Source of the DNA: Candidatus Kuenenia stuttgartensis
GTDB taxonomy: Bacteria; Planctomycetota; Brocadiia; Brocadiales; Brocadiaceae
Assembly (NCBI RefSeq): GCF_900232105.1
Contig: NZ_LT934425.1
Coordinates: forward strand, 2,880,001-2,912,000
DNA length: 32,000 nucleotides
Reading direction: 5' to 3'
The notes below the pieces were generated by a model that did no database searches, was not told the DNA's origin, and saw only the letters and a program-made list of their open reading frames with translations. Below are positions 3,746 through 32,000 of the stretch, piece after piece (positions within the stretch are counted from its first letter, which is position 1; each line of letters starts with the position of its first letter). A program made the translations under genes and the position numbers.

Positions 3746-3787
3746 GGGCAGGAGGACCGAACGTTGGGAAACTTCATCCTCCTGCCC
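3746..3787 (-). terminator. 11-bp perfect GC-rich hairpin followed by a T-tract on the minus strand
   Basis: gggcaggagga (3746-3756) pairs with tcctcctgccc (3777-3787) around a 20-nt loop. Read on the minus strand it is followed by tgag-tttttt (plus-strand A-run 3736-3741). It lies 30 nt upstream of the GTG start at 3817. Confidence 0.4.
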
Positions 3788-3816
3788 ATTTCCCCTCTAT
3801 ACAAAGGAGGCAGTGC

Positions 3817-4455: not shown

Positions 4456-4493
4456 GTTACAATCACCTCCACACTTAAAAAAGGAGGTGAATT

Positions 4494-6054: not shown

Positions 6055-6056
6055 CC

Positions 6057-6848: not shown

Positions 6849-6859
6849 GGAGGTCTACC

Positions 6860-7162
6860 ATGGCCCGTCTCTTTTCCCCTCAACTCTTGCGCTCATTACG
6901 AAACGATATCCCCATCGATCGACTCATCACTGATGTCCTCTCCATACCTCATAAATACTCCGAAGGCTATTTCCGCTTCCTCTGCCCTCTCTGTTCTGAA
7001 TTTAATTCCGCCACCAACCCAAATACGAACCTCGCCAGGTGTTTCCGTTGTAAAAAAAACTTTAATACCATCGACATCGTCATGGTAGATTCCAACTCCT
7101 CTTTCCCAGATGCTGTCTATCTGCTAAAATCCGTTTTACCTCAATATATTAATTCCACTTAA
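6860..7162 (+). CDS. Stand-alone CHC2/primase-type zinc-finger protein (100 aa)
   Basis: IPIDRLITDVLSIPHKYSEGYFRFLCPLCSEFNSATNPNTNLARCFRCKKNFNTIDIVM follows the DnaG zinc-binding-domain layout (CPxx...S..V.......CFxC...G..I.F) but with a CxxC...CxxC ligand set. An AAGGAGGT SD is present. Confidence 0.6.
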   Translation: MARLFSPQLLRSLRNDIPIDRLITDVLSIPHKYSEGYFRFLCPLCSEFNSATNPNTNLARCFRCKKNFNTIDIVMVDSNSSFPDAVYLLKSVLPQYINST

Positions 7163-7193
7163 TCTGAGAATTCCAGGTTCATTTATTGTGGGG

Positions 7194-7378
7194 CTTAGCA
7201 ACCGGGCATTTGCTCCACGATCCTTATGGACCGCTTCATGGACTCTCTCCCGGAACATCAGCTTACCCATAAAATTCAATACCGGTAAAAGCCCTGCATG
7301 TACCGTTAAGCCTTTCCCGCTCATCTCTGCCTTGATTTTCGGTTGTCTTTTGCTGTATTTTTTTGCTATATTCTTCAT
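7194..7378 (-). pseudogene. N-terminal stub (~60 codons) of an IS1380/IS4-superfamily transposase
   Basis: ...EMSGKGLTVHAGLLPVLNFMGKLMFRERVHEAVHKDRGANARL resembles the N-terminal (G)LTSxAGLLLL..F...L.L motif of IS1380-type transposases. Plausible sequence stops where the transposon end abuts it (~7194). Confidence 0.4.
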
Positions 7379-7457
7379 CGAAATGGTGAATCTCCTTTCA
7401 GGTGTTTTTTGTTATCAATATACCGCCGAATACCTTGGAAATCCTACCATTTCAATC

Positions 7458-9290: not shown

Positions 9291-9549
9291 ACCGGTATTT
9301 TACCATGTAAGCAATGGCGCCGCAAGCATAAACAATAATATTCAGGCACTACATTAAACGCCGAAAGCAACATTCAACCATACCAATAGGTTACGACTAT
9401 TATACGCTCAATTTCTTGCCTTTTTCAGGGTAAATTTGTCGAAGTTGGGTTAAGAGTACCGTATTTTACAGTAGGCACTAATCCCATTCTCACGAGTAAA
9501 AATACCTTGTGAGTGAAAATAAAATAGTTAAAAAGTGTAGTAAAAGCAA

Positions 9550-10137
9550 CTATGCGACCAATCGAGCCCCTTCTGCCCTGGAAAAATCGATTCGTTCAAG
9601 AATAAATTTTGTAAGGATTGACTTTTGAGATGAATCCACGAGAAATTCAGGAAGGCAATTTCTCATTGCAATGGCCGTCACTTGTTCTGAAGGACAAATT
9701 CCCGGTCTCATAGTCCGCAACCATGACCCGAAGGAATTCCAAACAAGCGATGGAAATGCTGAAGAAATATATTGCAAAAGCCCCTGTGCAATAACGCCGG
9801 CCTGTATATGTCTGTGATAGGCTGCAAGTTTTCTGCGAACTGCATTTCTGTATTCAGAGCTTCTTTTGTGAACATGTTGATTGCCGGAACGCCTTTTAAT
9901 TGGCTGCATATTTCTCATCCAAAAATGGTAGGCATATGTGCCCAAGGTTCTAAGCGCCTGTTTGAAAGACACTTCGATTTTGAAACGCAATCCATACAGG
10001 CAGATAATTTCCATTGCATTAATAGTTAAATCCGTACTCATTAAAATAATTTTCCCTCTTTGAGGGTGATCCACCAATACAAATCGAATAAGAATACCCA
10101 CGGGTTTCCAAAGCAGATCAAGGGTTCTATAATTTAT
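9550..10137 (-). pseudogene. C-terminal part of an IS4/IS701-like DDE transposase, interrupted by the ISL3 element
   Basis: Contains the C-terminal Y-x2-R-x3-E block (YGLRFKIEVSFKQALR). The reading frame stays open upstream of the annotated GTG (GINYRTLDLLWKPVGILIRF...) right up to the ISL3 left end at 10138. Confidence 0.65.
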
Positions 10138-11518
10138 GCCTCATCCGCAGAATCTGTGGGTAAGTATTGGTTCCGGCAAATTACCAAGAGTATGATACAA
10201 GGCTGTTTGCAGGCATTCCAGAGATTTATAACCATAAGCCTTTCTCATAGTCAGTTTCGCCTTAAGGTTAAACCCCTCAACCGTACCGGAAGAAAGTCTG
10301 CCATCAGCCTTGAACCAGTTGAGAATGAGCTGCTTGTGATTGCGCAACATCTTTGCCACTTTTTTCATAGGTTCCAGGTTGGTTTTTAGGGTTCTCGTAA
10401 TCCAGTTCTCGAGAAACCTGTCTGCATACGCCGGATACTTATACTCCCAAAAACGCTGAAAATCTTCACGCATTAAATATGCCTTTATTGAACTCAGGTT
10501 GATCTTAACTATCTGGCTTAACCGTACCGTTTGCTTTTCTGTCAAGTTCTCAGGCCTTTTCAACAGTAACCAACGGCTCTTTTCCAAAACATTGTCTGTG
10601 CCTTCATCCTTGAGCTTTTTGACCTCTTCCCTCCGTATCTGGTCTATGGCTTCATTGAATTTCTTCATGATGTGGAAACGGTCAAGAATATTAAGCGCCT
10701 GGGAAGCCTTCTTCGCTATCACCTTCAGGTACGGCGACCACATATCGCTGCAAACGAATTTGATTCTCAGACAACGTTCTATACCTAACTCCATGAAAAA
10801 CTTCCGCAGGGTCTTTGCCTTCCGCTCAGGGCCACTCCATAAAAGCCTTTTGGCATGCGAATCAAGCTGATATACAAGGGTTAAATACTTGTGGCCACTC
10901 CAGACTTGTATCTCGTCTATTCCTATTTCCGTTATATTCTCCAAGTCCCTGTGGGCAAGGCCGTAGGCAACTACAAACTGCACTGCCCTATACACACTGT
11001 CCCAACTGGACTTGAATATCTCGGCTGTCTCTTTCCAACTCAGGCGTTTAGCCCATCGAGACAGGAATACCTTGTATGTGGTGGTCATCTGCTCCTTACC
11101 TTCTGACCAGGGAATTCGCTCTACATGGATTCCGTCCACTGGACAGGCGGCGCGTCGCGGGGAATATCGGAAAAATACTTGAAACCCCCATAATGGCGGA
11201 TACTCGTATAACCGGGACGGCTGTGTATCATACCCAGACGCTCTCTTCCCACATACTGAACATTCAGGCTTGGCATTTACCCTCGGCTTTATATCTGCTA
11301 CTAATGCCTTTCTACCATTTATGACCTCGAAACTGACTGCTTTGTAAACAAATGACTTGAAATTCTCTACCGTATTTAATAATGTCTTTATCTGCATTGC
11401 CTCTCCTTTTGGGTTAAGATGCTTTCTTGATAAAAAACATCTTACTCCCTTTGGGATGGCAATGCACCTTTTCTCTTACTAATCCTTACTTATTACCCAC
11501 AGATTCTGCGGACGAGCC
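10138..11518 (-). mobile_element. ISL3-family insertion sequence (1381 bp) with terminal inverted repeats
   Basis: The left end is gcctcatccgcagaatctgtgggtaa. The reverse complement of the right end is ggctcgtccgcagaatctgtgggtaa, so 24 of 26 bases match, with a GGCTC-type ISL3 terminus. It carries one transposase gene. Confidence 0.9.
10141..11397 (-). CDS. ISL3-family transposase (418 aa)
   Basis: An N-terminal zinc-finger region (CSVCGKR...C) is followed by IGIDEIQVWSGHKYLTLVYQLD..., ...CSDMWSPYLK... and ...TVEGFNLKAKLTMRKAYGYKS, which is the typical ISL3 DDE layout. Confidence 0.9.
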   Translation of the reverse strand: MQIKTLLNTVENFKSFVYKAVSFEVINGRKALVADIKPRVNAKPECSVCGKRASGYDTQPSRLYEYPPLWGFQVFFRYSPRRAACPVDGIHVERIPWSEGKEQMTTTYKVFLSRWAKRLSWKETAEIFKSSWDSVYRAVQFVVAYGLAHRDLENITEIGIDEIQVWSGHKYLTLVYQLDSHAKRLLWSGPERKAKTLRKFFMELGIERCLRIKFVCSDMWSPYLKVIAKKASQALNILDRFHIMKKFNEAIDQIRREEVKKLKDEGTDNVLEKSRWLLLKRPENLTEKQTVRLSQIVKINLSSIKAYLMREDFQRFWEYKYPAYADRFLENWITRTLKTNLEPMKKVAKMLRNHKQLILNWFKADGRLSSGTVEGFNLKAKLTMRKAYGYKSLECLQTALYHTLGNLPEPILTHRFCG

Positions 11519-19370: not shown

Positions 19371-19400
19371 TTGACATTGCCTCTGGAATCGTGATACTAT
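19371..19400 (+). promoter_or_regulatory. Candidate sigma70-type promoter for nikR
   Basis: TTGACA (19371-19376), then a 16-18-nt spacer, then gTGaTACTAT (an extended -10-like element, 19392-19400). Confidence 0.45.
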
Positions 19401-19468
19401 TTTCCGATTAGTAACATCGTTTAATGTCAAAAAACCAGAGCGTTACGCATAATTTTATATTGAGGCGC

Positions 19469-19888
19469 ATGATGTCTTTTTTGGTTAGATTCGGGGTTTC
19501 TCTGGAAAAGGAACTCCTTAAGAAATTTGATACCCACATAAAGAAGAAAAAATATACCAACCGTTCGGAGGCAATACGTGATCTGATACGCGGTAATTTG
19601 GTGATGGAAGAATGGCAGGAAGGCAAGGAGATTACCGGTTCTATCACACTTGTTTACGATCATCATAAAAGGGAACTGGTAAACATGCTCATTGATATCC
19701 AGCACGACTATCATGGTATTATCCTTTCTTCCCAGCATATCCATCTAGATCATGATAATTGTCTTGAAATCATTGTTATAAAAGGCAAGCCGCAAATGGT
19801 AGAGGAATTATACGGAAAACTGAAATCGGCAAAAGGTGTTAAACACGGGGGCATATCCATGGCAACTACGGGAAAGGGGATTTTGTAA
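19469..19888 (+). CDS. nikR: Nickel-responsive regulator NikR (ribbon-helix-helix + C-terminal metal-binding domain)
   Basis: RFGVSLEKELLKKFD...YTNRSEAIRDLIR is the RHH domain. HDYHGIILSSQHIHLDHDNCLEIIVIKG is the His/Cys nickel-site region. The ATG at 19469/19472 follows GAGG, whereas the ORF-track start at 19424 adds an atypical extension. Confidence 0.85.
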   Translation: MMSFLVRFGVSLEKELLKKFDTHIKKKKYTNRSEAIRDLIRGNLVMEEWQEGKEITGSITLVYDHHKRELVNMLIDIQHDYHGIILSSQHIHLDHDNCLEIIVIKGKPQMVEELYGKLKSAKGVKHGGISMATTGKGIL

Positions 19889-19921
19889 ATATGGCCTTTT
19901 CTAATCAAGCCCGGATTTCTG

Positions 19922-19939
19922 CACTATGCTTGCATAGCG
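19922..19939. promoter_or_regulatory. Imperfect palindrome cactatgc-tt-gcatagcg (possible distal operator)
   Basis: It shares the CTATGC/GCATAG half-site core with the palindrome at 20022-20038, about 90 bp away. It is duplicated at 27095-27112. Confidence 0.25.
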
Positions 19940-20019
19940 GCAAACATGGATACAATGAGAACGGGTTTCCTTCTGCCATTGCAAAAAAACATCCCGGAAT
20001 ATTCGTGATATTATTTTTT

Positions 20020-20047
20020 TTGTGCTATGCAATAGCACGAGTATATT
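20020..20047 (+). promoter_or_regulatory. Candidate cbiM promoter with an embedded perfect 7-3-7 palindrome (putative NikR operator)
   Basis: TTGTGC (20020-20025), 16 nt, then TATATT (20042-20047). The palindrome GTGCTAT-gca-ATAGCAC (20022-20038) fills the spacer. It lies 41 bp upstream of the cbiM start. Confidence 0.4.
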
Positions 20048-20079
20048 ATACGTACTACTGGTAACCGGAGGAGACATTT

Positions 20080-20685
20080 TTGCATATTAGCGACGGAGTA
20101 CTTTCTCCCTACATTGTCATTACCGGATGGGCTGTTGCAGCCCCTTCGTTAGCGATGTCGGTAAAAAGCCTGAAACCTGACAAAGTCGGTGCATACGGAG
20201 TAATTGCCGCTGTTTTTTTTGCAGGTTCGACAATCCACATACCCCTTGGACCTTTCAGCATGCATCTTGTCCTCAATGGTATTGCAGGACTTTTACTGGG
20301 ATGGAGCGCTGTAACCGTAATAACGGTAGGCCTTTTGCTGCAGGCTTTGTTCCTTGGTTTTGGAGGATTGACTGTGTTGGGGGTAAATATTGCTGTTATG
20401 GCGTTGCCTGGCGCGATTATCGGCATGCTTGGACGCCATTGGATGAAACAGTTTTCAGCGAAAAAACGGCCATGGATAGGATCGTTCGCGGGTGGCGGTG
20501 CTGTATGTATTTCGTCCGTTTTACTCTTTGTTGCGCTTTCTACAACCCATGCGGCGCTGGCGCCCCTTGCCAAACTGGTTTTTTGGGGACATGTTCCTGT
20601 CATACTTGTTGAAGGCGTTATCAGTTATTGGCTGGTACACTTTTTGCAAAAAGCAAAACCTTCGTTATTAGGAATTTTACATTGA
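20080..20685 (+). CDS. cbiM: ECF-type Ni/Co transporter substrate-capture component CbiM/NikM (copy 1)
   Basis: TTG start 7 nt after GGAGGA. The N-terminus is the hallmark MHISDGVL (MHIxDG). The protein has about 6 TM helices and is followed by cbiQ and cbiO. Confidence 0.9.
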   Translation: MHISDGVLSPYIVITGWAVAAPSLAMSVKSLKPDKVGAYGVIAAVFFAGSTIHIPLGPFSMHLVLNGIAGLLLGWSAVTVITVGLLLQALFLGFGGLTVLGVNIAVMALPGAIIGMLGRHWMKQFSAKKRPWIGSFAGGGAVCISSVLLFVALSTTHAALAPLAKLVFWGHVPVILVEGVISYWLVHFLQKAKPSLLGILH

Positions 20686-21099
20686 AAGCTTTCTTATTCG
20701 TTTTTTTTTGTATCTTTTTTTCGGTGCCTTTAGCGGTATATGCACACGGACTTTCTCTTTTTTCTAAGGAGAAAACATTGTATGCATCTTACAGCGATCA
20801 TACACCTGCCTCAGGAGCAAAGGTTGTTCTTGTGGATGCAAATGGCGTAATAATTCTTCAGGATAAAATGGATGAAAAGGGGATAGTGGAAGTTGCCGGA
20901 GAATTTGGAGACAATACCTCACTTAATCATTGTAGATGATTCCGGAGGTCATCGTGCAATGATAACATGGGAGGAATTTCTTAAAGAACGCCCAAAGGGG
21001 TTGTTAGACATTTTAAGTATCCGCGTGGTAATTGGAGTCATGTTCATTATCGGCGGCGGTTATGCCATACAACGGTTTTTATTAAAAAAAAAGACATAA
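20682..21099 (+). pseudogene. CbiN/NikL-type 2-TM auxiliary component, frameshifted in copy 1
   Basis: Relative to the intact copy (27855-28271) there is an extra G at 20886 (gatagtgg against gatatgg). This splits the gene into ORFs 20628-20939 and 20893-21099. Confidence 0.75.
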
Positions 21100-21818
21100 T
21101 GCCATTTTGCAAACTACAAAAATTGAAATTGCCGCCGGCTTCTACCCGCACAGGAACGATACTGGTTTTGCTTGTACTGGTGGGTATAGGTTTGCTGAAT
21201 AATTTTGGGCCTCTTGTTGTTTGCCTGTTTATGGTGTTATTGTTTGGTGTATTCACAGTTGGAAACATATTCATTGTTGTATGCCATGCAAAAGGAGTCT
21301 GGGTTTTTTCCCTTCTCACCGGTGTAAGCCTTTTGCTAACAAAAGAGGGCAGAGCGCTTGCCCCAATCCTCATGGTCAAAATGTTTTCAATGTGGTTGTG
21401 GAGTGTAATCTGGATTAAATGGGTGGGATTTGAACGTATTTTGTCAACCTTAGAGAAAATGGGAATACCGGCAATTTTGTTAAATGTCATTGCATTTACC
21501 ACGCGTTTTTTACCTATTATGGGGGAACGGATAAAAATGACGTTTGCCGCACAGTCTTCACGCGGTGCAAAAAAGGGGTTGCGTTCCCTGCAATTACGAA
21601 ACCTTGCCGGGGGGATTGGCAGTGTGCTTTTGTCTAGTTTTGAGCAATCTGAAAATGTTGAACGTGCAATGCAATCACGCGGATTTTGCGGAACATATAC
21701 TATCAGCACAGACAAAGACGAAGCGCCCTCGTATGTTGTTTTGTCTCTGATGTTTTTAATGGCTTTTTTAATTTGGACCGGAGTGATTTGCGATGTCCTG
21801 TGTGGTAAGTGTTTATAA
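21099..21818 (+). CDS. cbiQ: ECF transporter transmembrane (T) component CbiQ/NikQ (copy 1, intact)
   Basis: Polytopic protein with the two coupling-helix motifs AAQSSRGA and ERAMQSRGF. Start and stop overlap as TAATG. Confidence 0.85.
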   Translation: MPFCKLQKLKLPPASTRTGTILVLLVLVGIGLLNNFGPLVVCLFMVLLFGVFTVGNIFIVVCHAKGVWVFSLLTGVSLLLTKEGRALAPILMVKMFSMWLWSVIWIKWVGFERILSTLEKMGIPAILLNVIAFTTRFLPIMGERIKMTFAAQSSRGAKKGLRSLQLRNLAGGIGSVLLSSFEQSENVERAMQSRGFCGTYTISTDKDEAPSYVVLSLMFLMAFLIWTGVICDVLCGKCL

Positions 21819-22521
21819 CGTTACGTTTCTTTATCCGAATGGTGTGCAGGCGATATCAGGATTATCATTTTCCGTTCACCAACATGAAAAGGTGGGTCTG
21901 ATCGGGCCTAGTGGCGCTGGCAAAACAACCCTTTTTTGGCACTTAAACGGGCTTTTAAGACCACATTCGGGAGAAGTTCGTGTTTTGGACAAACCGCTTA
22001 CCGGACTCAAAAATATTAATGAAGTTCGGAAGCATGTCGCCCTTACTTTTCAGCAGGTAAACGATCAGCTTTTTTGTTCTTCCGTCTGGGAGGAAATTGC
22101 ATTTGGACCGAAAAATTTGTATTGGCCAAAGCAGCAGGTGGCAGACACGGTGGAAAAGTGGCTGGCGTATTTTGAATTAAATGATGTTCGGGAACGGCCG
22201 CCGCATCATTTATCGGGAGGGCAGAAGCGCAGGGTTGCACTGGCGGCAGCTATGGCGATGGAACCCGATTTGTTAATCCTCGATGAACCAGCAAACGACC
22301 TGGACCACCGTCATAGACGTAAATTAATAACCTATCTGAAAGGATTAAGAATTGCTCTTCTGGTGGCCTCACATGATTTACGCCTGATAGAGGAATTGAC
22401 CGAACGGTGCATTCTTATGGATAAAGGCAGGATTGTTGCAGACAAAACTACCGTTGAGTTGGTACATAATGAAGGTATTTTAAAAAAGTACGGGATGGAG
22501 GCAATACCGATAAAAGAATAA
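21793..22521 (+). CDS. cbiO: ECF/ABC transporter ATPase CbiO/NikO (copy 1)
   Basis: Walker A is GPSGAGKTT, the signature is LSGGQKRRV, Walker B is LLILDEP and the H-loop is ASHD. Confidence 0.92.
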   Translation: MSCVVSVYNVTFLYPNGVQAISGLSFSVHQHEKVGLIGPSGAGKTTLFWHLNGLLRPHSGEVRVLDKPLTGLKNINEVRKHVALTFQQVNDQLFCSSVWEEIAFGPKNLYWPKQQVADTVEKWLAYFELNDVRERPPHHLSGGQKRRVALAAAMAMEPDLLILDEPANDLDHRHRRKLITYLKGLRIALLVASHDLRLIEELTERCILMDKGRIVADKTTVELVHNEGILKKYGMEAIPIKE

Positions 22522-22601
22522 ATATTTTTTTAATTATGGTGGCACGATAGTAATAAGTGTGCTATTTAATTCCCTTTATTTTGTTAAAAGGAGTTCTTGT
22601 G

Positions 22602-23609
22602 ATGAACAATCGTTTTTTTTACAGTTTTATTCTTATACTTTTTTTCTGTTGCGCAAGTAACGCTGGAAAAGTGTATGCCCATCATGGAGGCGTTTCTACC
22701 GCCTTTGGCCCTGGCGCACCTGTTGAAACTGCATCGCCTATGACTCTCGGGAAAGGGAAATTTTTGCTTTACGAAAAAATAGAATTTGCGTCTTTTGAAC
22801 AAAAGAACCATGCTGACCCTGAAAACATTGAAAACTTTACCTTCTTTAACACATTAGCCGGCTATGGCATTACTGACTATTTATCCCTCTATCTTGTGAT
22901 GCCTTATGCTATTAAAGAACAAGACTCCTTAGGCACATCGAAGGGGTTTGGTGATGCTGGATTTTTAGTACAATACGGTTTTAAGTACGGCGAGAGAAAC
23001 GGGATTCGGGGTTTTTATAATAACGGCCCGGAAGATACTATTGGAGAAAGTTACACGACTAATGATCTGAAAATGTCGGTTTTAGGGGGTTTTACTGTTC
23101 AGACCGGTGATATTACAAACGAAGATAATAATGGCAACAGGTTTGACATGGGCATGCAGACAGGTTTTGCCGCGCCAACGTTTATGACAGGTTTCTCCGC
23201 ATCAAAAATGCTTTTTCAGCACTTTACTCTTACCGGGGAGACATCATTTACCACCTTTACCCGTCATGATGACGGTAAACCTGGAAATGAGATCCGTTTC
23301 AATCTGGCCGGAGGGTATGAAATATTTGAAAATCCTCAGGGATTTTTCCAAAGGGTAGATATTATTACTGAATCAAACTTCCTCCATCTGACAAAAGATG
23401 AAGACGAACACCATCACGATGAAGATGACAGCGGGGGAACGATTCTGTATCTTTCACCTGGCTTTCGCGTTTCTCTTAAGAAAAATATCAGTATCGGAGG
23501 GCTTCTGAAATTTCCCGTATGGAAGGATTTGAACAGGGAATCGGAGCAACAGGGCGCTGAAGGACTTGAACACTATAGGGCAATTCTCACCGTGACATAT
23601 TCTTTTTAA
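22602..23609 (+). CDS. Outer-membrane beta-barrel protein with a His/Asp-rich loop (putative metal channel), copy 1
   Basis: Signal peptide ...NAGKVYA|HHGG. The body shows an alternating beta-strand pattern. There is a DEDEHHHDEDDSGG loop and a C-terminal ...TVTYSF (terminal Phe). An SD (aaggag) lies before GTG/ATG at 22599/22602. Confidence 0.7.
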   Translation: MNNRFFYSFILILFFCCASNAGKVYAHHGGVSTAFGPGAPVETASPMTLGKGKFLLYEKIEFASFEQKNHADPENIENFTFFNTLAGYGITDYLSLYLVMPYAIKEQDSLGTSKGFGDAGFLVQYGFKYGERNGIRGFYNNGPEDTIGESYTTNDLKMSVLGGFTVQTGDITNEDNNGNRFDMGMQTGFAAPTFMTGFSASKMLFQHFTLTGETSFTTFTRHDDGKPGNEIRFNLAGGYEIFENPQGFFQRVDIITESNFLHLTKDEDEHHHDEDDSGGTILYLSPGFRVSLKKNISIGGLLKFPVWKDLNRESEQQGAEGLEHYRAILTVTYSF

Positions 23610-23679
23610 GGACGCCAACCCTGGCAGGGTTTTCTGGTCAATAATACCTTAAACCATTTATAGAGAAGGAGGAAAAATT

Positions 23680-24249
23680 ATGCTAAAAACACGAATATGG
23701 AAAAAGCAGATGATTGCAATACTTTTTTGGGCTTGTTGTACATTTCTGTCTCATCAAAAATGCATATTTGCACATGAAGGCCATGACCACTGGAGTAATA
23801 CCCCTATAACCATTAAAAGATCGACAGTAGTGCATTTGCAGTCGCTATTGGAATCATATGATCTTCTCTACAAAAAACTTATAGAGAAAGATATCCAAAA
23901 TATTCCTGTATTGGCGCAAAATATTATGGATGCTGCGCAACAGGGTGTTCAAACTGAAAATAAAGGTGAGGGGCGTTATATGATGGAACATATTTTTCAG
24001 CATGCGATATCTCTTAAAGAATGTGAAACCCTGGAAAATGCAAAAGAATCTTTAGGGTTAATAAGCCGTGAACTGTTTCCGTTCTTTATTGCATGGCCAA
24101 TGCAGCTTAAAGAAAACAAGTTAAGGCTTTATCATTGTAAAAATGATGAAAAATACTGGTTTCAGGCAGAAAATAGCGCTCCAAATTGCCCTTATGCTCA
24201 CGATGAATTATCAACATGCATTATTATTGAGGAAGTAGCGTATAAATGA
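23680..24249 (+). CDS. Exported helical protein with N-terminal HEGHDH and a C-terminal Cys/His motif (DUF3347-like by recollection), copy 1
   Basis: AAGGAGG SD is present. The signal peptide is ...HQKCIFA|HEGHDHW. The C-terminus is LYHCKNDEKYWFQAENSAPNCPYAHDELSTC. Confidence 0.65.
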   Translation: MLKTRIWKKQMIAILFWACCTFLSHQKCIFAHEGHDHWSNTPITIKRSTVVHLQSLLESYDLLYKKLIEKDIQNIPVLAQNIMDAAQQGVQTENKGEGRYMMEHIFQHAISLKECETLENAKESLGLISRELFPFFIAWPMQLKENKLRLYHCKNDEKYWFQAENSAPNCPYAHDELSTCIIIEEVAYK

Positions 24250-24656
24250 ATTGAACGACCATCTTTGCTTTAGAAAAACATGACAGTCTTATGACACCGT
24301 GTGCCCATAATTGGTCACTGTTTATATCAAGCCTTGCAGGATAGATGCGACTTTGTGTCTTAAGAAAAAAAACCGATGCGTGACCATTTATAGTCTTTCT
24401 GCGTTCTCATGTACTAATTGCATCTTTTTTGTGCTGTAATCGTAACATATTTAACAGTAGTAGCTTGTGCTTTCTTTGGTTGTGGTGGTCGTGTTGTTTT
24501 TTTCGAAATGGCGCACTTCTTGCTAAGTGTTGTTACATACAAAGTGTTTTGTTGTGTATTATTTTGCGCAGAATTTTTTACGGAAGGGGGGTGAATGTAC
24601 GGACGCATTTAAGTGTAAAAGCAGAAATTTTCGTGAGTTAGGATTGAGCAGATGTT

Positions 24657-25820
24657 ATGAATTTTGAAGGAGGTAAGCGAAGAATTATGATACGAAAGGG
24701 AATGATAGGAGCGGTGATGCTTGGAGCTGCGGTAGCGATAAGTGGCGGAGTAGCGACTGCGGGGTATATACAGGGTACGCATGTAAAGACGGATTTACCC
24801 GGGCCGTTTCACATAACGATGTCGCCGGATGGTAGTACGTTATTTATATCGAATCAATCTGGGCACAGTGTAACGTTTGTGGATGCAAGGACGCAGAAGG
24901 TAACGGGTGAGGTCGCTGTGAGGGTACAGCCTGAGGCTTCAGCGGTTACGCCTGACGGGGCATTTTTGTATGTATGTAATGCAGAGAGCGACAGTGTATC
25001 GGTAGTGGACATACAGAGGAAGCAGGAGATCAAGGAGATAAAGGTAGGTGACTGGCCGAGCGGGATCAAGATTTCGCCTGATGGCAAGACTGCCTATGTT
25101 GCATGTTCCGGTTGCATGTGGAACGCGATTGATGTAATTGATACGGGGAGGATGGAGAAGGTAAGGTCGATATATACTTCAGATTACGGTCCCAGGATGG
25201 TGGAGATATCTCCTGATGGGAAGACCCTTGTTGCGATACTTGACACGGTAGGATCGATCAACCGGAGCGTTGATTTTATTGACATTGCCAGTGGCAGGGT
25301 AGTAGAGAACAGGGTAATCCATGAGAGTTCCAACCTGAGGGATGTTGTATATACGCCGGATGGTAAATACATAGCTGTAACCCACCAGACGCCGAAGAAC
25401 TGGTTGCCGGTATGTGAAGCGGAGAATGGTCAGGTATTTACGAACAACGTAACAATCATAGAGACCAAGGCCGGTGGTAAGGTAGCGAGATTACCGTTGG
25501 ACGATCTCAACAATTACGATGGCAATCCGTATGGTATGGCGATGGACCCTAAGGGCAAGTATTTGTACATTGGGGTAAGAGGGATGCATCGTGTAACGAT
25601 ACTGGATATGGATAAGGTATTGGGTCTGGTGAGGAGCAGCACGCAGGAGGAGCTTGATTATCTGAGGGACGACCTTGGGTTGGTAAGAGATTATCTTGTT
25701 GCCAGGGTTCCTACGGGTCTGGGGCCAAGTTCGGTATGTTTATCACCTGACGGCAAATTTTGTTATGCGGCCAACTATTTTTCCAACAATGTAACCGTGA
25801 TAAGGACTGCGGTTGATTAA
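24657..25820 (+). CDS. Exported YVTN-type beta-propeller repeat protein (start may be the ATG at 24687), copy 1
   Basis: Reiterated (S/T)PDGKxxYV.N...V.V(I)D units, for example ISPDGKTAYVAC, ISPDGKTLVAI, YTPDGKYIAVT and LSPDGKFCYAAN. Signal peptide is MIGAVMLGAAVAISGGVATA. Confidence 0.85.
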   Translation: MNFEGGKRRIMIRKGMIGAVMLGAAVAISGGVATAGYIQGTHVKTDLPGPFHITMSPDGSTLFISNQSGHSVTFVDARTQKVTGEVAVRVQPEASAVTPDGAFLYVCNAESDSVSVVDIQRKQEIKEIKVGDWPSGIKISPDGKTAYVACSGCMWNAIDVIDTGRMEKVRSIYTSDYGPRMVEISPDGKTLVAILDTVGSINRSVDFIDIASGRVVENRVIHESSNLRDVVYTPDGKYIAVTHQTPKNWLPVCEAENGQVFTNNVTIIETKAGGKVARLPLDDLNNYDGNPYGMAMDPKGKYLYIGVRGMHRVTILDMDKVLGLVRSSTQEELDYLRDDLGLVRDYLVARVPTGLGPSSVCLSPDGKFCYAANYFSNNVTVIRTAVD

Positions 25821-25862
25821 GGATTGTATGGAGTGTGAGAGTTATTTATTTTTGGAAAACAA

Positions 25863-26924
25863 ATGGCAAGAGAAATGAGATTAGGAGGAAAAGAAAGAAT
25901 GAAGACAGGAGTAGTGAAAATAGGATTAGTTGCGGCCCTGGGGGTAGTGGGGCTGATATCGGCGGGCGGCGTATATGCCGGTCAGCCGCGGGTAATTTCC
26001 ACGATCCAGACGGGAGCTACGTGGGAACCGCTGGGAAGGGAAGAACCTTTGACGGTGCCGGAAGTGCATTTTCGTGTAAAGCATTCACCTTTTAAGAGTG
26101 AGCTGGTAAGATACGGGCAGTTCCAGTTTAACGATGCAGCGTGGAGTTTGCAGGGATCATACTCATGCGCCAGTTGTCATTATGAGAGAGGCCAGACAAC
26201 CGGTTTGATTTGGGATTTGGGAGATGAAGGATGGGGTAGCTGGAAGAACACGAAGTATATTCGTGGCGGCCGATATCTTCCTCCGTTCAGGCATGAGGGG
26301 TTCACTGGTCATCCTGATGAAATAGTAGGGGCAACCAGTTCACTTGACAGGGTATGTGGAAGGGATCCTGGATTTGTGTTCAGGAGTGAGAATTTTTCTC
26401 CGATGAGATTAGAGGCGCTCATTTGTTACATCAGGGCGTTGGAATTTACCGGGAGTCCATTCAGGAATGCGGATGGGAGTTTAACCGAAGCCCAGAAGAG
26501 GGGTCAGAAGATATTTGAGGATCCGAAGGTAGGATGTCTTGAGTGTCATCCTGGCGATCCGATGGATCCGAGGGCATTGTTCAGTGATGCACAGACGCAT
26601 GATGTAGGAACCGGCAGGGTAGGTGTAAATGGTTTCAGGTCAACACCTGGGAAGGTATTTAACATATCGGCGTTAGAGGCAGGTGAGGATCCATATGGTG
26701 TTGAGAGCAACACGCCGATCATTGGATTGGATCTTGTGAAGGAATTTGATACGCCGACATTGAGAGACATCTATGCATCAGGCACCTATTTCCATGATGG
26801 TGGTGCAAGGACATTGATGGACACCATAAACAACACGGTAAATGATAAGGACATGCATGGAAGGACGTCTCATTTAAAGCAGCAGGAGCTCCAGGATTTG
26901 GTGGAGTACCTGAAGGCGTTATAA
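25863..26924 (+). CDS. Di-haem cytochrome c peroxidase/MauG-family protein (start probably the ATG at 25899)
   Basis: Two CxxCH motifs (CASCH, CLECH) and the family block FDTPTLRDIYASGTYFHDGGARTL. A signal peptide follows the AGGAGG SD. Confidence 0.8.
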   Translation: MAREMRLGGKERMKTGVVKIGLVAALGVVGLISAGGVYAGQPRVISTIQTGATWEPLGREEPLTVPEVHFRVKHSPFKSELVRYGQFQFNDAAWSLQGSYSCASCHYERGQTTGLIWDLGDEGWGSWKNTKYIRGGRYLPPFRHEGFTGHPDEIVGATSSLDRVCGRDPGFVFRSENFSPMRLEALICYIRALEFTGSPFRNADGSLTEAQKRGQKIFEDPKVGCLECHPGDPMDPRALFSDAQTHDVGTGRVGVNGFRSTPGKVFNISALEAGEDPYGVESNTPIIGLDLVKEFDTPTLRDIYASGTYFHDGGARTLMDTINNTVNDKDMHGRTSHLKQQELQDLVEYLKAL

Positions 26925-27003
26925 GAGAGAAGTGTATGAATGTGTAGTATAAGCGATAAAAATTTAAGGACAATAAGTGAAAGGAGAAGGCCAATAGATG
27001 GGT

Positions 27004-27061
27004 AAAAGGTGTTAAACACGGGGGCATATCCATGGCAACTACGGGAAAGGGGATTTTGTAA
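27004..27061 (+). pseudogene. Orphan 3' remnant of nikR (last ~18 codons plus stop) at the duplication junction
   Basis: Identical to 19831-19888 (...KGVKHGGISMATTGKGIL*), but preceded by the sequence downstream of the cytochrome gene. Confidence 0.9.
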
Positions 27062-27192
27062 ATATGGCCTTTTCTAATCAAGCCCGGATTTCTGCACTAT
27101 GCTTGCATAGCGGCAAACATGGATACAATGAGAACGGGTTTCCTTCTGCCATTGCAAAAAAACATCCCGGAATATTCGTGATATTATTTTTT

Positions 27193-27220
27193 TTGTGCTA
27201 TGCAATAGCACGAGTATATT
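27193..27220 (+). promoter_or_regulatory. Second copy of the candidate cbiM promoter and 7-3-7 palindrome
   Basis: Identical to 20020-20047. The palindrome is at 27195-27211. Confidence 0.4.
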
Positions 27221-27252
27221 ATACGTACTACTGGTAACCGGAGGAGACATTT

Positions 27253-27858
27253 TTGCATATTAGCGACGGAGTACTTTCTCCCTACATTGTCATTACCGGA
27301 TGGGCTGTTGCAGCCCCTTCGTTAGCGATGTCGGTAAAAAGCCTGAAACCTGACAAAGTCGGTGCATACGGAGTAATTGCCGCTGTTTTTTTTGCAGGTT
27401 CGACAATCCACATACCCCTTGGACCTTTCAGCATGCATCTTGTCCTCAATGGTATTGCAGGACTTTTACTGGGATGGAGCGCTGTAACCGTAATAACGGT
27501 AGGCCTTTTGCTGCAGGCTTTGTTCCTTGGTTTTGGAGGATTGACTGTGTTGGGGGTAAATATTGCTGTTATGGCGTTGCCTGGCGCGATTATCGGCATG
27601 CTTGGACGCCATTGGATGAAACAGTTTTCAGCGAAAAAACGGCCATGGATAGGATCGTTCGCGGGTGGCGGTGCTGTATGTATTTCGTCCGTTTTACTCT
27701 TTGTTGCGCTTTCTACAACCCATGCGGCGCTGGCGCCCCTTGCCAAACTGGTTTTTTGGGGACATGTTCCTGTCATACTTGTTGAAGGCGTTATCAGTTA
27801 TTGGCTGGTACACTTTTTGCAAAAAGCAAAACCTTCGTTATTAGGAATTTTACATTGA
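27253..27858 (+). CDS. cbiM: CbiM/NikM (copy 2)
   Basis: Its protein is identical to that of 20080-20685. Confidence 0.9.
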   Translation: MHISDGVLSPYIVITGWAVAAPSLAMSVKSLKPDKVGAYGVIAAVFFAGSTIHIPLGPFSMHLVLNGIAGLLLGWSAVTVITVGLLLQALFLGFGGLTVLGVNIAVMALPGAIIGMLGRHWMKQFSAKKRPWIGSFAGGGAVCISSVLLFVALSTTHAALAPLAKLVFWGHVPVILVEGVISYWLVHFLQKAKPSLLGILH

Positions 27859-28271
27859 AAGCTTTCTTATTCGTTTTTTTTTGTATCTTTTTTTCGGTGC
27901 CTTTAGCGGTATATGCACACGGACTTTCTCTTTTTTCTAAGGAGAAAACATTGTATGCATCTTACAGCGATCATACACCTGCCTCAGGAGCAAAGGTTGT
28001 TCTTGTGGATGCAAATGGCGTAATAATTCTTCAGGATAAAATGGATGAAAAGGGGATATGGAAGTTGCCGGAGAATTTGGAAACAATACCTCACTTAATC
28101 ATTGTAGATGATTCCGGAGGTCATCGTGCAATGATAACATGGGAGGAATTTCTTAAAGAACGCCCAAAGGGGTTGTTAGACATTTTAAGTATCCGCGTGG
28201 TAATTGGAGTCATGTTCATTATCGGCGGCGGTTATGCCATACAACGGTTTTTATTAAAAAAAAAGACATAA
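27855..28271 (+). CDS. CbiN/NikL-type auxiliary component: N-terminal signal/TM, ~75-aa periplasmic beta-rich domain, C-terminal TM (intact copy)
   Basis: A TTG at 27855 overlaps the cbiM stop (TTGA). The sequence is MKAFLFVFFCIFFSVPLAVYA|HG..., then AKVVLVDANGVIILQDKMDEKGIW...DDSGGHRAM, then the C-terminal TM IRVVIGVMFIIGGGYAI. The position between M and Q matches CbiN/NikL, but it has no CbiN sequence motifs. Confidence 0.6.
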   Translation: MKAFLFVFFCIFFSVPLAVYAHGLSLFSKEKTLYASYSDHTPASGAKVVLVDANGVIILQDKMDEKGIWKLPENLETIPHLIIVDDSGGHRAMITWEEFLKERPKGLLDILSIRVVIGVMFIIGGGYAIQRFLLKKKT

Positions 28272-28991
28272 TGCCATTTTGCAAACTACAAAAATTGAAA
28301 TTGCCGCCGGCTTCTACCCGCACAGGAACGATACTGGTTTTGCTTGTACTGGTGGGTATAGGTTTGCTGAATAATTTTGGGCCTCTTGTTGTTTGCCTGT
28401 TTATGGTGTTATTGTTTGGTGTATTCACAGTTGGAAACATATTCATTGTTGTATGCCATGCAAAAGGAGTCTGGGTTTTTTTCCCTTCTCACCGGTGTAA
28501 GCCTTTTGCTAACAAAAGAGGGCAGAGCGCTTGCCCCAATCCTCATGGTCAAAATGTTTTCAATGTGGTTGTGGAGTGTAATCTGGATTAAATGGGTGGG
28601 ATTTGAACGTATTTTGTCAACCTTAGAGAAAATGGGAATACCGGCAATTTTGTTAAATGTCATTGCATTTACCACGCGTTTTTTACCTATTATGGGGGAA
28701 CGGATAAAAATGACGTTTGCCGCACAGTCTTCACGCGGTGCAAAAAAGGGGTTGCGTTCCCTGCAATTACGAAACCTTGCCGGGGGGATTGGCAGTGTGC
28801 TTTTGTCTAGTTTTGAGCAATCTGAAAATGTTGAACGTGCAATGCAATCACGCGGATTTTGCGGAACATATACTATCAGCACAGACAAAGACGAAGCGCC
28901 CTCGTATGTTGTTTTGTCTCTGATGTTTTTAATGGCTTTTTTAATTTGGACCGGAGTGATTTGCGATGTCCTGTGTGGTAAGTGTTTATAA
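28271..28991 (+). pseudogene. cbiQ: CbiQ/NikQ, frameshifted in copy 2
   Basis: A T7 run at 28486-28492 replaces the T6 run at 21304-21309. This splits the gene into ORFs 28271-28591 and 28377-28991. Confidence 0.8.
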
Positions 28992-29694
28992 CGTTACGTT
29001 TCTTTATCCGAATGGTGTGCAGGCGATATCAGGATTATCATTTTCCGTTCACCAACATGAAAAGGTGGGTCTGATCGGGCCTAGTGGCGCTGGCAAAACA
29101 ACCCTTTTTTGGCACTTAAACGGGCTTTTAAGACCACATTCGGGAGAAGTTCGTGTTTTGGACAAACCGCTTACCGGACTCAAAAATATTAATGAAGTTC
29201 GGAAGCATGTCGCCCTTACTTTTCAGCAGGTAAACGATCAGCTTTTTTGTTCTTCCGTCTGGGAGGAAATTGCATTTGGACCGAAAAATTTGTATTGGCC
29301 AAAGCAGCAGGTGGCAGACACGGTGGAAAAGTGGCTGGCGTATTTTGAATTAAATGATGTTCGGGAACGGCCGCCGCATCATTTATCGGGAGGGCAGAAG
29401 CGCAGGGTTGCACTGGCGGCAGCTATGGCGATGGAACCCGATTTGTTAATCCTCGATGAACCCGCAAACGACCTGGACCACCGTCATAGACGTAAATTAA
29501 TAACCTATCTGAAAGGATTAAGAATTGCTCTTCTGGTGGCCTCACATGATTTACGCCTGATAGAGGAATTGACCGAACGGTGCATTCTTATGGATAAAGG
29601 CAGGATTGTTGCAGACAAAACTACCGTTGAGTTGGTACATAATGAAGGTATTTTAAAAAAGTACGGGATGGAGGCAATACCGATAAAAGAATAA
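28966..29694 (+). CDS. cbiO: CbiO/NikO ATPase (copy 2)
   Basis: The protein is identical to copy 1, with one synonymous change (cca to ccc at 29463). Confidence 0.92.
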   Translation: MSCVVSVYNVTFLYPNGVQAISGLSFSVHQHEKVGLIGPSGAGKTTLFWHLNGLLRPHSGEVRVLDKPLTGLKNINEVRKHVALTFQQVNDQLFCSSVWEEIAFGPKNLYWPKQQVADTVEKWLAYFELNDVRERPPHHLSGGQKRRVALAAAMAMEPDLLILDEPANDLDHRHRRKLITYLKGLRIALLVASHDLRLIEELTERCILMDKGRIVADKTTVELVHNEGILKKYGMEAIPIKE

Positions 29695-29774
29695 ATATTT
29701 TTTTAATTATGGTGGCACGATAGTAATAAGTGTGCTATTTAATTCCCTTTATTTTGTTAAAAGGAGTTCTTGTG

Positions 29775-30782
29775 ATGAACAATCGTTTTTTTTACAGTTT
29801 TATTCTTATACTTTTTTTCTGTTGCGCAAGTAACGCTGGAAAAGTGTATGCCCATCATGGAGGCGTTTCTACCGCCTTTGGCCCTGGCGCACCTGTTGAA
29901 ACTGCATCGCCTATGACTCTCGGGAAAGGGAAATTTTTGCTTTACGAAAAAATAGAATTTGCGTCTTTTGAACAAAAGAACCATGCTGACCCTGAAAACA
30001 TTGAAAACTTTACCTTCTTTAACACATTAGCCGGCTATGGCATTACTGACTATTTATCCCTCTATCTTGTGATGCCTTATGCTATTAAAGAACAAGACTC
30101 CTTAGGCACATCGAAGGGGTTTGGTGATGCTGGATTTTTAGTACAATACGGTTTTAAGTACGGCGAGAGAAACGGGATTCGGGGTTTTTATAATAACGGC
30201 CCGGAAGATACTATTGGAGAAAGTTACACGACTAATGATCTGAAAATGTCGGTTTTAGGGGGTTTTACTGTTCAGACCGGTGATATTACAAACGAAGATA
30301 ATAATGGCAACAGGTTTGACATGGGCATGCAGACAGGTTTTGCCGCGCCAACGTTTATGACAGGTTTCTCCGCATCAAAAATGCTTTTTCAGCACTTTAC
30401 TCTTACCGGGGAGACATCATTTACCACCTTTACCCGTCATGATGACGGTAAACCTGGAAATGAGATCCGTTTCAATCTGGCCGGAGGGTATGAAATATTT
30501 GAAAATCCTCAGGGATTTTTCCAAAGGGTAGATATTATTACTGAATCAAACTTCCTCCATCTGACAAAAGATGAAGACGAACACCATCACGATGAAGATG
30601 ACAGCGGGGGAACGATTCTGTATCTTTCACCTGGCTTTCGCGTTTCTCTTAAGAAAAATATCAGTATCGGAGGGCTTCTGAAATTTCCCGTATGGAAGGA
30701 TTTGAACAGGGAATCGGAGCAACAGGGCGCTGAAGGACTTGAACACTATAGGGCAATTCTCACCGTGACATATTCTTTTTAA
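29775..30782 (+). CDS. Outer-membrane beta-barrel protein with His/Asp-rich loop (copy 2)
   Basis: Identical to 22602-23609. Confidence 0.7.
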   Translation: MNNRFFYSFILILFFCCASNAGKVYAHHGGVSTAFGPGAPVETASPMTLGKGKFLLYEKIEFASFEQKNHADPENIENFTFFNTLAGYGITDYLSLYLVMPYAIKEQDSLGTSKGFGDAGFLVQYGFKYGERNGIRGFYNNGPEDTIGESYTTNDLKMSVLGGFTVQTGDITNEDNNGNRFDMGMQTGFAAPTFMTGFSASKMLFQHFTLTGETSFTTFTRHDDGKPGNEIRFNLAGGYEIFENPQGFFQRVDIITESNFLHLTKDEDEHHHDEDDSGGTILYLSPGFRVSLKKNISIGGLLKFPVWKDLNRESEQQGAEGLEHYRAILTVTYSF

Positions 30783-30852
30783 GGACGCCAACCCTGGCAG
30801 GGTTTTCTGGTCAATAATACCTTAAACCATTTATAGAGAAGGAGGAAAAATT

Positions 30853-31422
30853 ATGCTAAAAACACGAATATGGAAAAAGCAGATGATTGCAATACTTTTT
30901 TGGGCTTGTTGTACATTTCTGTCTCATCAAAAATGCATATTTGCACATGAAGGCCATGACCACTGGAGTAATACCCCTATAACCATTAAAAGATCGACAG
31001 TAGTGCATTTGCAGTCGCTATTGGAATCATATGATCTTCTCTACAAAAAACTTATAGAGAAAGATATCCAAAATATTCCTGTATTGGCGCAAAATATTAT
31101 GGATGCTGCGCAACAGGGTGTTCAAACTGAAAATAAAGGTGAGGGGCGTTATATGATGGAACATATTTTTCAGCATGCGATATCTCTTAAAGAATGTGAA
31201 ACCCTGGAAAATGCAAAAGAATCTTTAGGGTTAATAAGCCGTGAACTGTTTCCGTTCTTTATTGCATGGCCAATGCAGCTTAAAGAAAACAAGTTAAGGC
31301 TTTATCATTGTAAAAATGATGAAAAATACTGGTTTCAGGCAGAAAATAGCGCTCCAAATTGCCCTTATGCTCACGATGAATTATCAACATGCATTATTAT
31401 TGAGGAAGTAGCGTATAAATGA
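30853..31422 (+). CDS. Exported HEGHDH helical protein (copy 2)
   Basis: Identical to 23680-24249. Confidence 0.65.
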   Translation: MLKTRIWKKQMIAILFWACCTFLSHQKCIFAHEGHDHWSNTPITIKRSTVVHLQSLLESYDLLYKKLIEKDIQNIPVLAQNIMDAAQQGVQTENKGEGRYMMEHIFQHAISLKECETLENAKESLGLISRELFPFFIAWPMQLKENKLRLYHCKNDEKYWFQAENSAPNCPYAHDELSTCIIIEEVAYK

Positions 31423-31829
31423 ATTGAACGACCATCTTTGCTTTAGAAAAACATGACAGTCTTATGACACCGTGTGCCCATAATTGGTCACTGTTTATAT
31501 CAAGCCTTGCAGGATAGATGCGACTTTGTGTCTTAAGAAAAAAAACCGATGCGTGACCATTTATAGTCTTTCTGCGTTCTCATGTACTAATTGCATCTTT
31601 TTTGTGCTGTAATCGTAACATATTTAACAGTAGTAGCTTGTGCTTTCTTTGGTTGTGGTGGTCGTGTTGTTTTTTTCGAAATGGCGCACTTCTTGCTAAG
31701 TGTTGTTACATACAAAGTGTTTTGTTGTGTATTATTTTGCGCAGAATTTTTTACGGAAGGGGGGTGAATGTACGGACGCATTTAAGTGTAAAAGCAGAAA
31801 TTTTCGTGAGTTAGGATTGAGCAGATGTT

Positions 31830-32000
31830 ATGAATTTTGAAGGAGGTAAGCGAAGAATTATGATACGAAAGGGAATGATAGGAGCGGTGATGCTTGGAGC
31901 TGCGGTAGCGATAAGTGGCGGAGTAGCGACTGCGGGGTATATACAGGGTACGCATGTAAAGACGGATTTACCCGGGCCGTTTCACATAACGATGTCGCCG
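31830..32000 (+). CDS. YVTN beta-propeller protein, copy 2, 5' part (runs off the window)
   Basis: Identical to 24657-24827. Confidence 0.8.
   Translation, partial: MNFEGGKRRIMIRKGMIGAVMLGAAVAISGGVATAGYIQGTHVKTDLPGPFHITMSP

Follow-up and report, generated by a model that had tools for sequence, protein, structure and literature searches.

A NikR-linked nickel import locus in Kuenenia stuttgartiensis whose exported products are predicted to begin with histidine

The passage of nickel across the outer membrane and periplasm of most Gram-negative bacteria is poorly understood. Here we describe a gene cluster of the anammox planctomycete Candidatus Kuenenia stuttgartiensis, occupying 19.4-24.3 kb on the plus strand of a 32,000-nucleotide stretch of contig NZ_LT934425.1 (positions 2,880,001 to 2,912,000; 'the window' denotes this whole analysed stretch), in which the genes of a nickel importer stand beside those for an outer-membrane barrel and a periplasmic four-helix protein of 189 residues. 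The exported products of the cluster share one predicted signal-peptidase junction that would leave a histidine at the mature N-terminus, and the locus as a whole probably encodes a NikR-controlled, envelope-spanning Ni(II) uptake module that makes use of these N-terminal histidines.

Genes of the locus

The core of the module is a NikR-linked nickel importer of the known energy-coupling factor (ECF) type. The repressor at its head is recognised by the Pfam models NikR_C (1.5e-30) and RHH_1 and by NCBIfam NF003381 (181 bits, cutoff 105), and nikM, nikQ and nikO lie in one operon in which the genes abut or overlap (Table 1). NikM aligns from its first residue with NikM2 (PDB 4M58/4M5B), keeping M1-H2 and placing H62 opposite His67; in the published NikM2 structure the nickel site is reportedly formed by the Met1 amine, the amide and imidazole of His2, and His67. 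The auxiliary gene between nikM and nikQ is preceded by an AGGA motif 7 nt ahead of its TTG start, and its product is predicted to comprise a signal peptide (MKAFLFVFFCIFFSVPLAVYA), a mature chain starting HGLS, an Ig-like domain and a C-terminal membrane anchor. It scores 34 bits (E 2.3e-8) with the NikL family model NCBIfam NF058648, whose cutoff is 100, and a word-index homologue search retrieved close anammox relatives only; its architecture of signal peptide, His1, beta domain with a conserved xHG and C-terminal anchor is common to the NikL proteins of all groups. The window and the anammox loci contain no DUF4198 (NikK) gene.

The barrel gene follows nikO. AlphaFold2 models the mature chain as a beta-barrel (predicted local distance difference test, pLDDT, 88; predicted template-modelling score 0.84), and Foldseek matches the model to the 12-stranded FapF (E 2e-10) and to Pput2725 (PDB 4RL8; E 1.6e-9), with template-modelling (TM) scores of 0.64/0.73 for the latter and of 0.6-0.74 overall for these two best PDB matches; the family profile found no solved relative by sequence. 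Among 273 homologues the most specific annotation is 'transporter'. PF13557 (Phenol_MetA_deg) returns nothing for the window barrel even at E <= 1 and matches 9 of the 28 aligned relatives (best 2.9e-8). Judged by its model, the protein is an outer-membrane-type 12-stranded beta-barrel and a far relative of the COG4313/PF13557 channels. All full-length relatives carry a signal peptide followed by A↓HHG(G/S/A), where the arrow marks predicted cleavage, and by V-S-x-A-F-G-P-G-x-P-x-E-T, and mature H1, H2 and G3 are invariant in an alignment of 67 sequences with 46-83% identity to the query. Residues 1-27 of the model are non-strand, and residues 11-30, ahead of strand 1, have pLDDT values of 78-92. 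In Pput2725 the N-terminal 14 residues fold into the lumen and occlude the channel (PMC4493636); by analogy, the conserved segment of about 17 residues, HHGG...ET, may sit in the barrel lumen as a plug. Elsewhere in the protein, an acidic, histidine-rich loop (KDEDEHHHDEDD, window positions 23385-23420, residues ~262-273) stays acidic in barrel relatives; its histidines are not conserved.

The 189-residue protein is encoded directly after the barrel, and an identical protein with the same neighbours is found on Kuenenia stuttgartiensis assemblies. Its AlphaFold2 model (pLDDT 88) consists of four helices and a small C-terminal hairpin with the first six residues disordered; Foldseek returned only generic four-helix bundles from the PDB (E >= 0.06), and a PDB sequence profile search gave nothing meaningful. 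A word-index search found few relatives, all of them close anammox proteins, and an exhaustive profile search collected 36 representatives. Of its homologues, P0144 passes the DUF3347 cutoff (PF11827, 25.5 bits) with 32.6 bits and P0129 falls just short of it with 25.4 bits, and the family profile in turn retrieves typical DUF3347 proteins at 1e-6 to 1e-4. From model and profiles, we regard the protein as periplasmic and helical and as a probable, divergent member of DUF3347. Mature H1, G3 and H4 are at least 90% conserved within its clade (HEGH, HPGH, HAGH, HTGH), and the homologues encoded in the loci all read A↓H-x-G-H or differ from it only slightly. Lipoprotein processing was considered and rejected: FWAC forms no lipobox and the cysteine is not conserved.

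A first-pass annotation made from the sequence alone had recognised a nickel acquisition locus here. Its gene positions and the MHISDG start of CbiM agree with the sequence, and its assignment to nickel is supported by nikR, the NikL-like, NikQ and NikO genes, the M1-H2/H62 set of NikM and a candidate NikR operator; the outer-membrane barrel and the periplasmic helical protein it proposed are borne out by the structural models.

Table 1. Window coordinates of the nickel locus, its neighbours and its second copy
Feature	Position	Strand	Remarks
Candidate NikR operator	19391-19417	+	GTGATAC-N13-GTAACAT, two mismatches; sole match in the window
nikR	19469-19888	+	Nickel-responsive repressor; 139 residues counted from the second in-frame ATG pair
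nikM/cbiM	20080-20685	+	ECF S component; TTG start, N-terminus MHISDG; Pfam CbiM 7.8e-47
nikL-like auxiliary gene, copy 1	20682-21099	+	TTG start overlapping the cbiM stop; frameshifted
nikQ/cbiQ	21099-21818	+	T component; Pfam CbiQ 9.4e-17; TIGR02454 2.4e-20
nikO/cbiO	21793-22521	+	ATP-binding cassette ATPase; Pfam ABC_tran 6e-33; NCBIfam ECF ATPase models
Barrel gene	22602-23609	+	Outer-membrane barrel, 335 residues
Barrel signal peptide	22602-22679		Predicted
Barrel mature chain	from 22680		Predicted; begins HHGGVSTAFGPGAPVET
189-residue protein gene	23680-24249	+	Periplasmic four-helix protein, probably a divergent DUF3347
189-residue protein, mature chain	from 23773		Predicted cleavage; begins HEGHDHW
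Hydrazine synthase beta (beta-propeller)	24657-25820		Downstream of module; NCBIfam NF052340/NF052341 pair, 719 bits
Hydrazine synthase gamma (di-haem)	25863-26924		Downstream of module; NCBIfam NF052340/NF052341 pair, 725 bits
Duplication unit 1	19825-26997	+	3' end of nikR through nickel module to hydrazine synthase beta and gamma
Duplication unit 2	26998-32000	+	Cut by window end
nikM, copy 2	27253-27858		
nikL, copy 2	27855-28271		Intact
nikQ, copy 2	28271-28991		Frameshifted
nikO, copy 2	28966-29694		
Barrel gene, copy 2	29775-30782		
DUF3347-like gene, copy 2	30853-31422		

Histidine at the predicted mature N-termini

The three junctions read LAVYA↓HGLS in the NikL-like subunit, GKVYA↓HHGG in the barrel and KCIFA↓HEGHDHW in the DUF3347-like protein, and thus share the pattern (V/I)(Y/F)A↓H that the first-pass annotation had pointed out. 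Each combines a positively charged n-region with a hydrophobic core, V or I at -3 and A at -1. Cleavage was predicted from the n/h/c regions, the -3/-1 rule, conservation in homologues and the NikK structure, which starts at histidine; on these grounds all three exported chains are predicted to begin with His, and their N-terminal semi-tryptic peptides would be HHGGVSTAFGPGAPVETASPMTLGK, HEGHDHWSNTPITIK and HGLSLFSK. Candidate second ligands, judged by conservation, are H2 in the barrel, H4 in the 189-residue protein and the conserved xHG in NikL. The amino-terminal copper- and nickel-binding (ATCUN) motif, NH2-X-X-His, is not formed, none of HHGG, HEGH and HGLS having His3, and the N-terminus of the barrel is NH2-X-His, like that of NikM.

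The conservation of the junction was followed in 80 loci, for which one genome per species was scanned with barrel-derived peptide patterns that excluded His-His. A↓H is invariant in homologues down to 35-45% identity, and the barrel reads A↓HH(G/S) in 78 of the 80 loci, the remaining two being cut at a contig end. As a control for circularity, homologues were also sought with N-terminally truncated queries, and a small residue followed by His was kept in all complete homologues of NikL (30/30) and NikK (28/28), in the DUF4198 variant of the gamma type (10/10) and in a further protein of 200-240 residues without a Pfam match (3/3). The motifs differ between families: NikK domains read A↓HD(F/Y/L)W(I/L)E, with His18 also kept; NikL reads A↓H(S/T/A)(I/V)(H/N)Y in the delta type, A↓HEVLHEV in the Anaeromyxobacter type, A↓HGL(Y/S) in anammox bacteria and A↓HKVNMFAH in the gamma type; the gamma-type DUF4198 variant reads A↓HYP(L/I)LIGDR and the further protein A↓H(K/E)GHAGPM. 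At the level of sequence, the junction is shared by exported parts belonging to six protein families and spread across phyla. The small exported proteins with a histidine start in gamma-type clusters (L043 5148-5759, L045 11114-11839, L052 9788-10513 and L078 10306-10677) include this further protein and a DUF6488 protein reading A↓HPGHGPHTHE.

These loci occur in anammox Planctomycetota, Gammaproteobacteria, Thermodesulfobacteriota and other 'delta' lineages and Nitrospirota, and further in NC10, Ignavibacteria, Myxococcota (Anaeromyxobacter) and Burkholderiales. The first-pass annotation had named a lack of conservation of the N-terminal His among homologues as grounds for rejecting its reading, and by this check the reading is not refuted. 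The barrel gene lies within 6 kb of nikM, nikQ, nikO, nikK, nikL or nikR in 63 of them, and in 77 if the DUF3347-like gene is counted too. Two main arrangements are seen. In the anammox/gamma/Nitrospira type the DUF3347-like gene directly follows the barrel (37/80 loci), and in the delta type nikM is fused to a DUF4198/NikK domain and followed by nikL, the barrel, nikQ and nikO; the barrel is accompanied by NikK (DUF4198) in delta-type as well as gamma-type loci.

The NikM-NikK fusions lie upstream of the barrel (L048, L050, L053, L055, L057-L059, L062, L064, L070, L072, L074, L076 and L079) and contain an extra hydrophobic segment, ending A-x-A↓HD(F/Y)WIE, that joins NikM to the DUF4198/NikK domain. 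That a polytopic protein retains a junction resembling a signal-peptidase site suggests that it is cleaved internally, which would free His1 of NikK. Separately, NikO of delta-type (L057 10026-10913) and Anaeromyxobacter (L082 2369-3157) loci bears a histidine-rich C-terminal tail, e.g. HEHIHRHGDMAHRHIHSHYLFHRHEK, which the Kuenenia NikO lacks.

The junction and the synteny bear on the simplest alternative, namely that an ordinary COG4313 channel for hydrophobic compounds happens to lie beside an unrelated 189-residue protein, with A↓H arising by chance or from a preference of signal peptidase. The Pfam name Phenol_MetA_deg borne by barrel relatives and the link of COG4313 members to hydrophobic substrates (PMC4493636) speak for it. 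However, a crude signal-peptide caller applied to the 80 loci placed His at +1 in 114 of 325 calls inside the clusters (35%) against 5 of 222 elsewhere (~2%), and the neighbouring exported proteins of the window, hydrazine synthase beta and gamma, start with Gly. Together with the invariance of the junction across phyla in six families, the nik synteny in 63 of the 80 loci and the mostly polar or charged nature of the conserved barrel residues, this makes the alternative highly improbable, and we consider it already strongly disfavoured.

The same loci are less decisive on whether the parts act in sequence. The N-terminal histidines could be independent sites without an ordered relay, the plug serving as a filter or nickel gate and the DUF3347-like protein as a buffer or store, with NikL alone loading NikM. 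Several arrangements agree with this: in three Brocadiaceae loci (L020, L028, L032) nikR is directly followed by the barrel and DUF3347-like genes with no adjoining ECF transporter, in Scalindua loci the pair adjoins a different, distantly related cbiMQO, and delta-type loci have the barrel with NikK in place of the DUF3347-like gene. The published cases of N-terminal histidine, moreover, concern capture and not multi-step transfer (PMC12537917). Against it stand the tight, repeated co-location and the single chemical feature borne by all exported parts, for which a shared pathway is the easier explanation, and we hold independent sites to be rather unlikely.

Regulation and duplication of the module

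The NikR box described for delta-proteobacteria is GTGTTAC-N13-GTAACAC (PMC545781). The window contains no exact copy of this consensus, and the single match with two mismatches (Table 1) overlaps the -10 element of a promoter-like site (hexamers 19371-19398) upstream of nikR. In 11 other loci an equivalent box precedes one of the genes nikR, cbiM and barrel; altogether, 24 boxes with at most two mismatches were found in 934 kb, 12 of them just upstream of one of these genes. The module is thus a candidate for control by NikR through these putative operators. Two palindromes lie between nikR and nikM, CTATGCttGCATAG at 19920-19943 and GTGCTATGCAATAGCAC at about 20019-20041 (repeated at 27192-27214), the latter flagged, at 20022-20038, only as terminator-like, and the motif CGTGATA(C/T)TATTTT is found ahead of nikR (19389) and again ahead of nikM (20003). 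From their sequences and positions, the palindromes and the motif could be further operator elements.

The regulatory context also bears on the metal. The barrel and the DUF3347-like protein might handle another metal (Co, Cu or Zn) or take part in efflux or detoxification, their link to the nik genes reflecting general metal homeostasis. In keeping with this, one DUF3347 relative (P0168) is fused to a CusB/HlyD-type efflux adaptor, NCBIfam calls the S component 'cobalt transporter CbiM', some NikKMLQO systems have been predicted to import cobalt (PMC2667541), and Ang-1, another domain with His1, prefers Cu (PMC12537917). The adjacent nikR and the candidate NikR boxes ahead of the operons nevertheless point to nickel, as does the position of the barrel inside nikM-nikL-...-nikQ-nikO operons; the NikK and NikL partners are nickel-associated, NikK preferring Ni over Cu, and the clusters contain no efflux pump genes. 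A metal other than nickel, or a role in efflux, is accordingly improbable.

In the Kuenenia window the module is not single. A self-BLAST of the two units listed in Table 1 gives 99.88% identity over 5,004 bp, with 4 mismatches and 2 indels, at a period of 7,173 bp. The duplicated segment carries the hydrazine synthase beta and gamma genes and not alpha, and the second copy is without a nikR of its own because the left junction falls inside the 3' end of that gene. Both indels disrupt a transporter gene: an extra G at 20886 brings nikL of copy 1 to a stop at 20937-20939, leaving frames 20682-20939 and 20893-21099, and an extra T in a T-run at 28476 shifts the frame of nikQ in copy 2. As assembled, a complete NikMLQO is therefore encoded only by both copies together. 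Neither indel is present in eight other assemblies of the locus, so an assembly or sequencing error is possible. The first-pass annotation had placed the genes of a single module correctly and had read the NikL-like junction as it stands, and had overlooked both the frameshift in this copy of the gene and the tandem duplication of the whole module with part of the hydrazine synthase genes.

Strain MBR1 has been described as having an extra hzsABC copy and a partial hzsBC copy (PMC5854607), and the tandem duplication matches the latter. In another Kuenenia assembly (GCA_900232175.1, OCTL01000095.1; loci L002/L003) this locus is tandemly duplicated in a different way, with a ~5.6-kb period and a junction at which a truncated propeller gene is fused to the NikR C-terminal domain, giving a 281-residue product with a NikR_C match. 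The locus seems prone to repeated amplification. A functional tie to hydrazine synthase was considered and rejected: the adjacency is specific to this Kuenenia locus and results from the duplication, different genes flank the canonical hzs cluster, and elsewhere among anammox genomes the nickel module stands with no hzs genes beside it. Further upstream, between trpA and MgtE/DUF362/M50 genes, a transposase cluster at 2253-11397 (two DDE_Tnp_1, one Mu-type rve with an AAA helper and one ISL3) marks a plastic region of the genome.

A proposed route for nickel and its relation to known systems

Signal-peptidase cleavage would expose His1 on each exported part of the module, so that its alpha-amine and imidazole could chelate Ni(II). 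In the barrel, NH2-His-His would match Met1-His2 of NikM in its NH2-X-His arrangement; probably placed in or at the pore, it might confer selectivity or act as the first site. The DUF3347-like protein would take up or buffer periplasmic nickel with its flexible H-x-G-H arm, and NikL, tethered to the inner membrane, would hand the ion to the N-terminus of NikM. There it would be bound by the free N-terminal amine, His2 and His62, while NikQ and NikO would drive ATP-dependent import. The most likely route would thus lead from the barrel to the periplasmic protein, to NikL, to the N-terminus of NikM and into the cell. The strictest form of this proposal is a true stepwise relay, in which a nickel-dedicated family of TonB-independent channels with NH2-His-His in the pore, a DUF3347-like metallochaperone and NikL or NikK pass the ion on to Met1-His2 of NikM; it is possible, and we advance it tentatively. 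The first-pass annotation, too, had inferred a metal hand-off chain; its reading is supported in part, in that the nickel context and the functional constraint on the N-terminal His hold up, and the ordered chain is a hypothesis.

Several observations weigh against an uptake module of this kind. Neither the barrel nor the 189-residue protein of the window matches any Pfam (DUF3347 included) or NCBIfam model, and the 67 aligned barrels share no further His, Cys or Met at an invariant position with which a metal site could be completed. The first 5-6 residues of both structural models have pLDDT values below 50, so the luminal plug is an analogy to 4RL8, and the known COG4313 channels are, as said, linked to hydrophobic substrates. 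One of 13 distant library representatives of the 189-residue family (P0141) is without the N-terminal His, and the fusion of DUF3347 relatives to CusB-type copper/silver efflux adaptors leaves the metal specificity of the fold unsettled.

In at least eight phyla, a small barrel and a periplasmic protein, both with a conserved and chemically meaningful N-terminus, are genomically associated with nickel ECF importers. The two are concrete, clonable candidates for the missing steps of nickel entry, and NikL and a branch of DUF3347 thereby gain a testable role. In anammox bacteria the nickel supply feeds CO dehydrogenase/acetyl-CoA synthase and hydrogenases, and the module consequently bears on anammox carbon fixation.

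The importer itself has well-described relatives. Between 2004 and 2009, NikK and NikL were put forward as periplasmic components of NikMQO systems that might bind nickel (PMC545781, PMC2667541), and the window resembles the NikKMLQO and Nik(MN)QO systems in the Met-His site of NikM, in NikQ and NikO, in the linked nikR and candidate NikR box, and in a NikL-like subunit that, as in NikKMLQO, has an N-terminal hydrophobic segment and a C-terminal anchor. In contrast to these systems, the anammox locus is without NikK or NikN and has the additional barrel and DUF3347-like genes, which appear in no description that we found.

The use of an N-terminal histidine as a metal ligand, which the first-pass annotation had invoked with reference to the His braces of CopC and LPMOs, is experimentally established for NikK/DUF4198, an accessory of this type of transporter. 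In October 2025 Franco Cairo et al. reported a deliberate search for proteins with His after the signal peptide; DUF4198/NikK (PDB 9GCB) binds Ni2+ with a dissociation constant of 18 nM through the amine and imidazole of His1 plus His18, this facial site favours Ni over Cu, and 'anglerase' domains with His1 occur on HupE/UreJ permeases (PMC12537917). The chain solved in 9GCB, deposited as 'NikK', starts HDAWVE. The principle is hence not new; the present locus would carry it beyond single proteins to an entire pathway. That paper (PMC12537917) contains no mention of NikL, of DUF3347 or of 'outer membrane', and our literature search, which did not cover Rodionov et al. 2006, found nothing tying COG4313/PF13557 or DUF3347 to nickel and no published structure or function for DUF3347. 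The first-pass remark of being aware of no described nickel system with this composition therefore holds only in part: the NikMLQO core was known and the N-terminal-His principle published in 2025, whereas the barrel, its DUF3347-like partner and the feature they share appear undescribed, as does NikL in this role. What appears to be new is a widespread family of barrels that accompany nickel ECF transporters and start with an invariant His-His, their DUF3347-like partner and the presence of one feature on all exported parts.

Like NikK/DUF4198 and the anglerases, which are exported, NikR-linked, serve a nickel permease and chelate metal by the amine and imidazole of His1, the window proteins belong to a nickel permease locus, and the delta-type NikK encoded next to the barrel keeps both His1 and His18. 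They differ in being a barrel, a four-helix bundle and a small anchored Ig-like domain, and in them metal binding is proposed from the shared N-terminus.

At the outer membrane, TonB-dependent receptors and unspecific porins are the only routes considered in recent work on nickel (PMC11247825). TonB-dependent nickel receptors such as FrpB4, FecA3 and NikH are NikR-regulated components for nickel entry across this membrane (PMC11247825), but the barrel, with ~310 residues and 12 strands, has neither a TonB box nor a 22-stranded plug-barrel, and its transport, if any, would be passive or binding-driven. This TonB-independent family appears to be undescribed in a nickel role. It shares its fold (TM 0.64-0.74) and a non-strand segment before strand 1 with Pput2725 (4RL8) of COG4313, and is set apart by the clade-specific N-terminus HHGG..AFGPGxPxET and by a context of nickel genes in place of aromatic or lipid catabolism. 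The DUF3347-like partner, which likewise appears undescribed in a nickel role, resembles the DUF3347 proteins encoded in heavy-metal efflux loci in its four-helix domain and in the C..W.Q..PY..C hairpin that comes after it; its clade departs from them in an altered CPM/NPY..M..CG motif, in an H-x-G-H N-terminus of its own and in its association with nickel genes.

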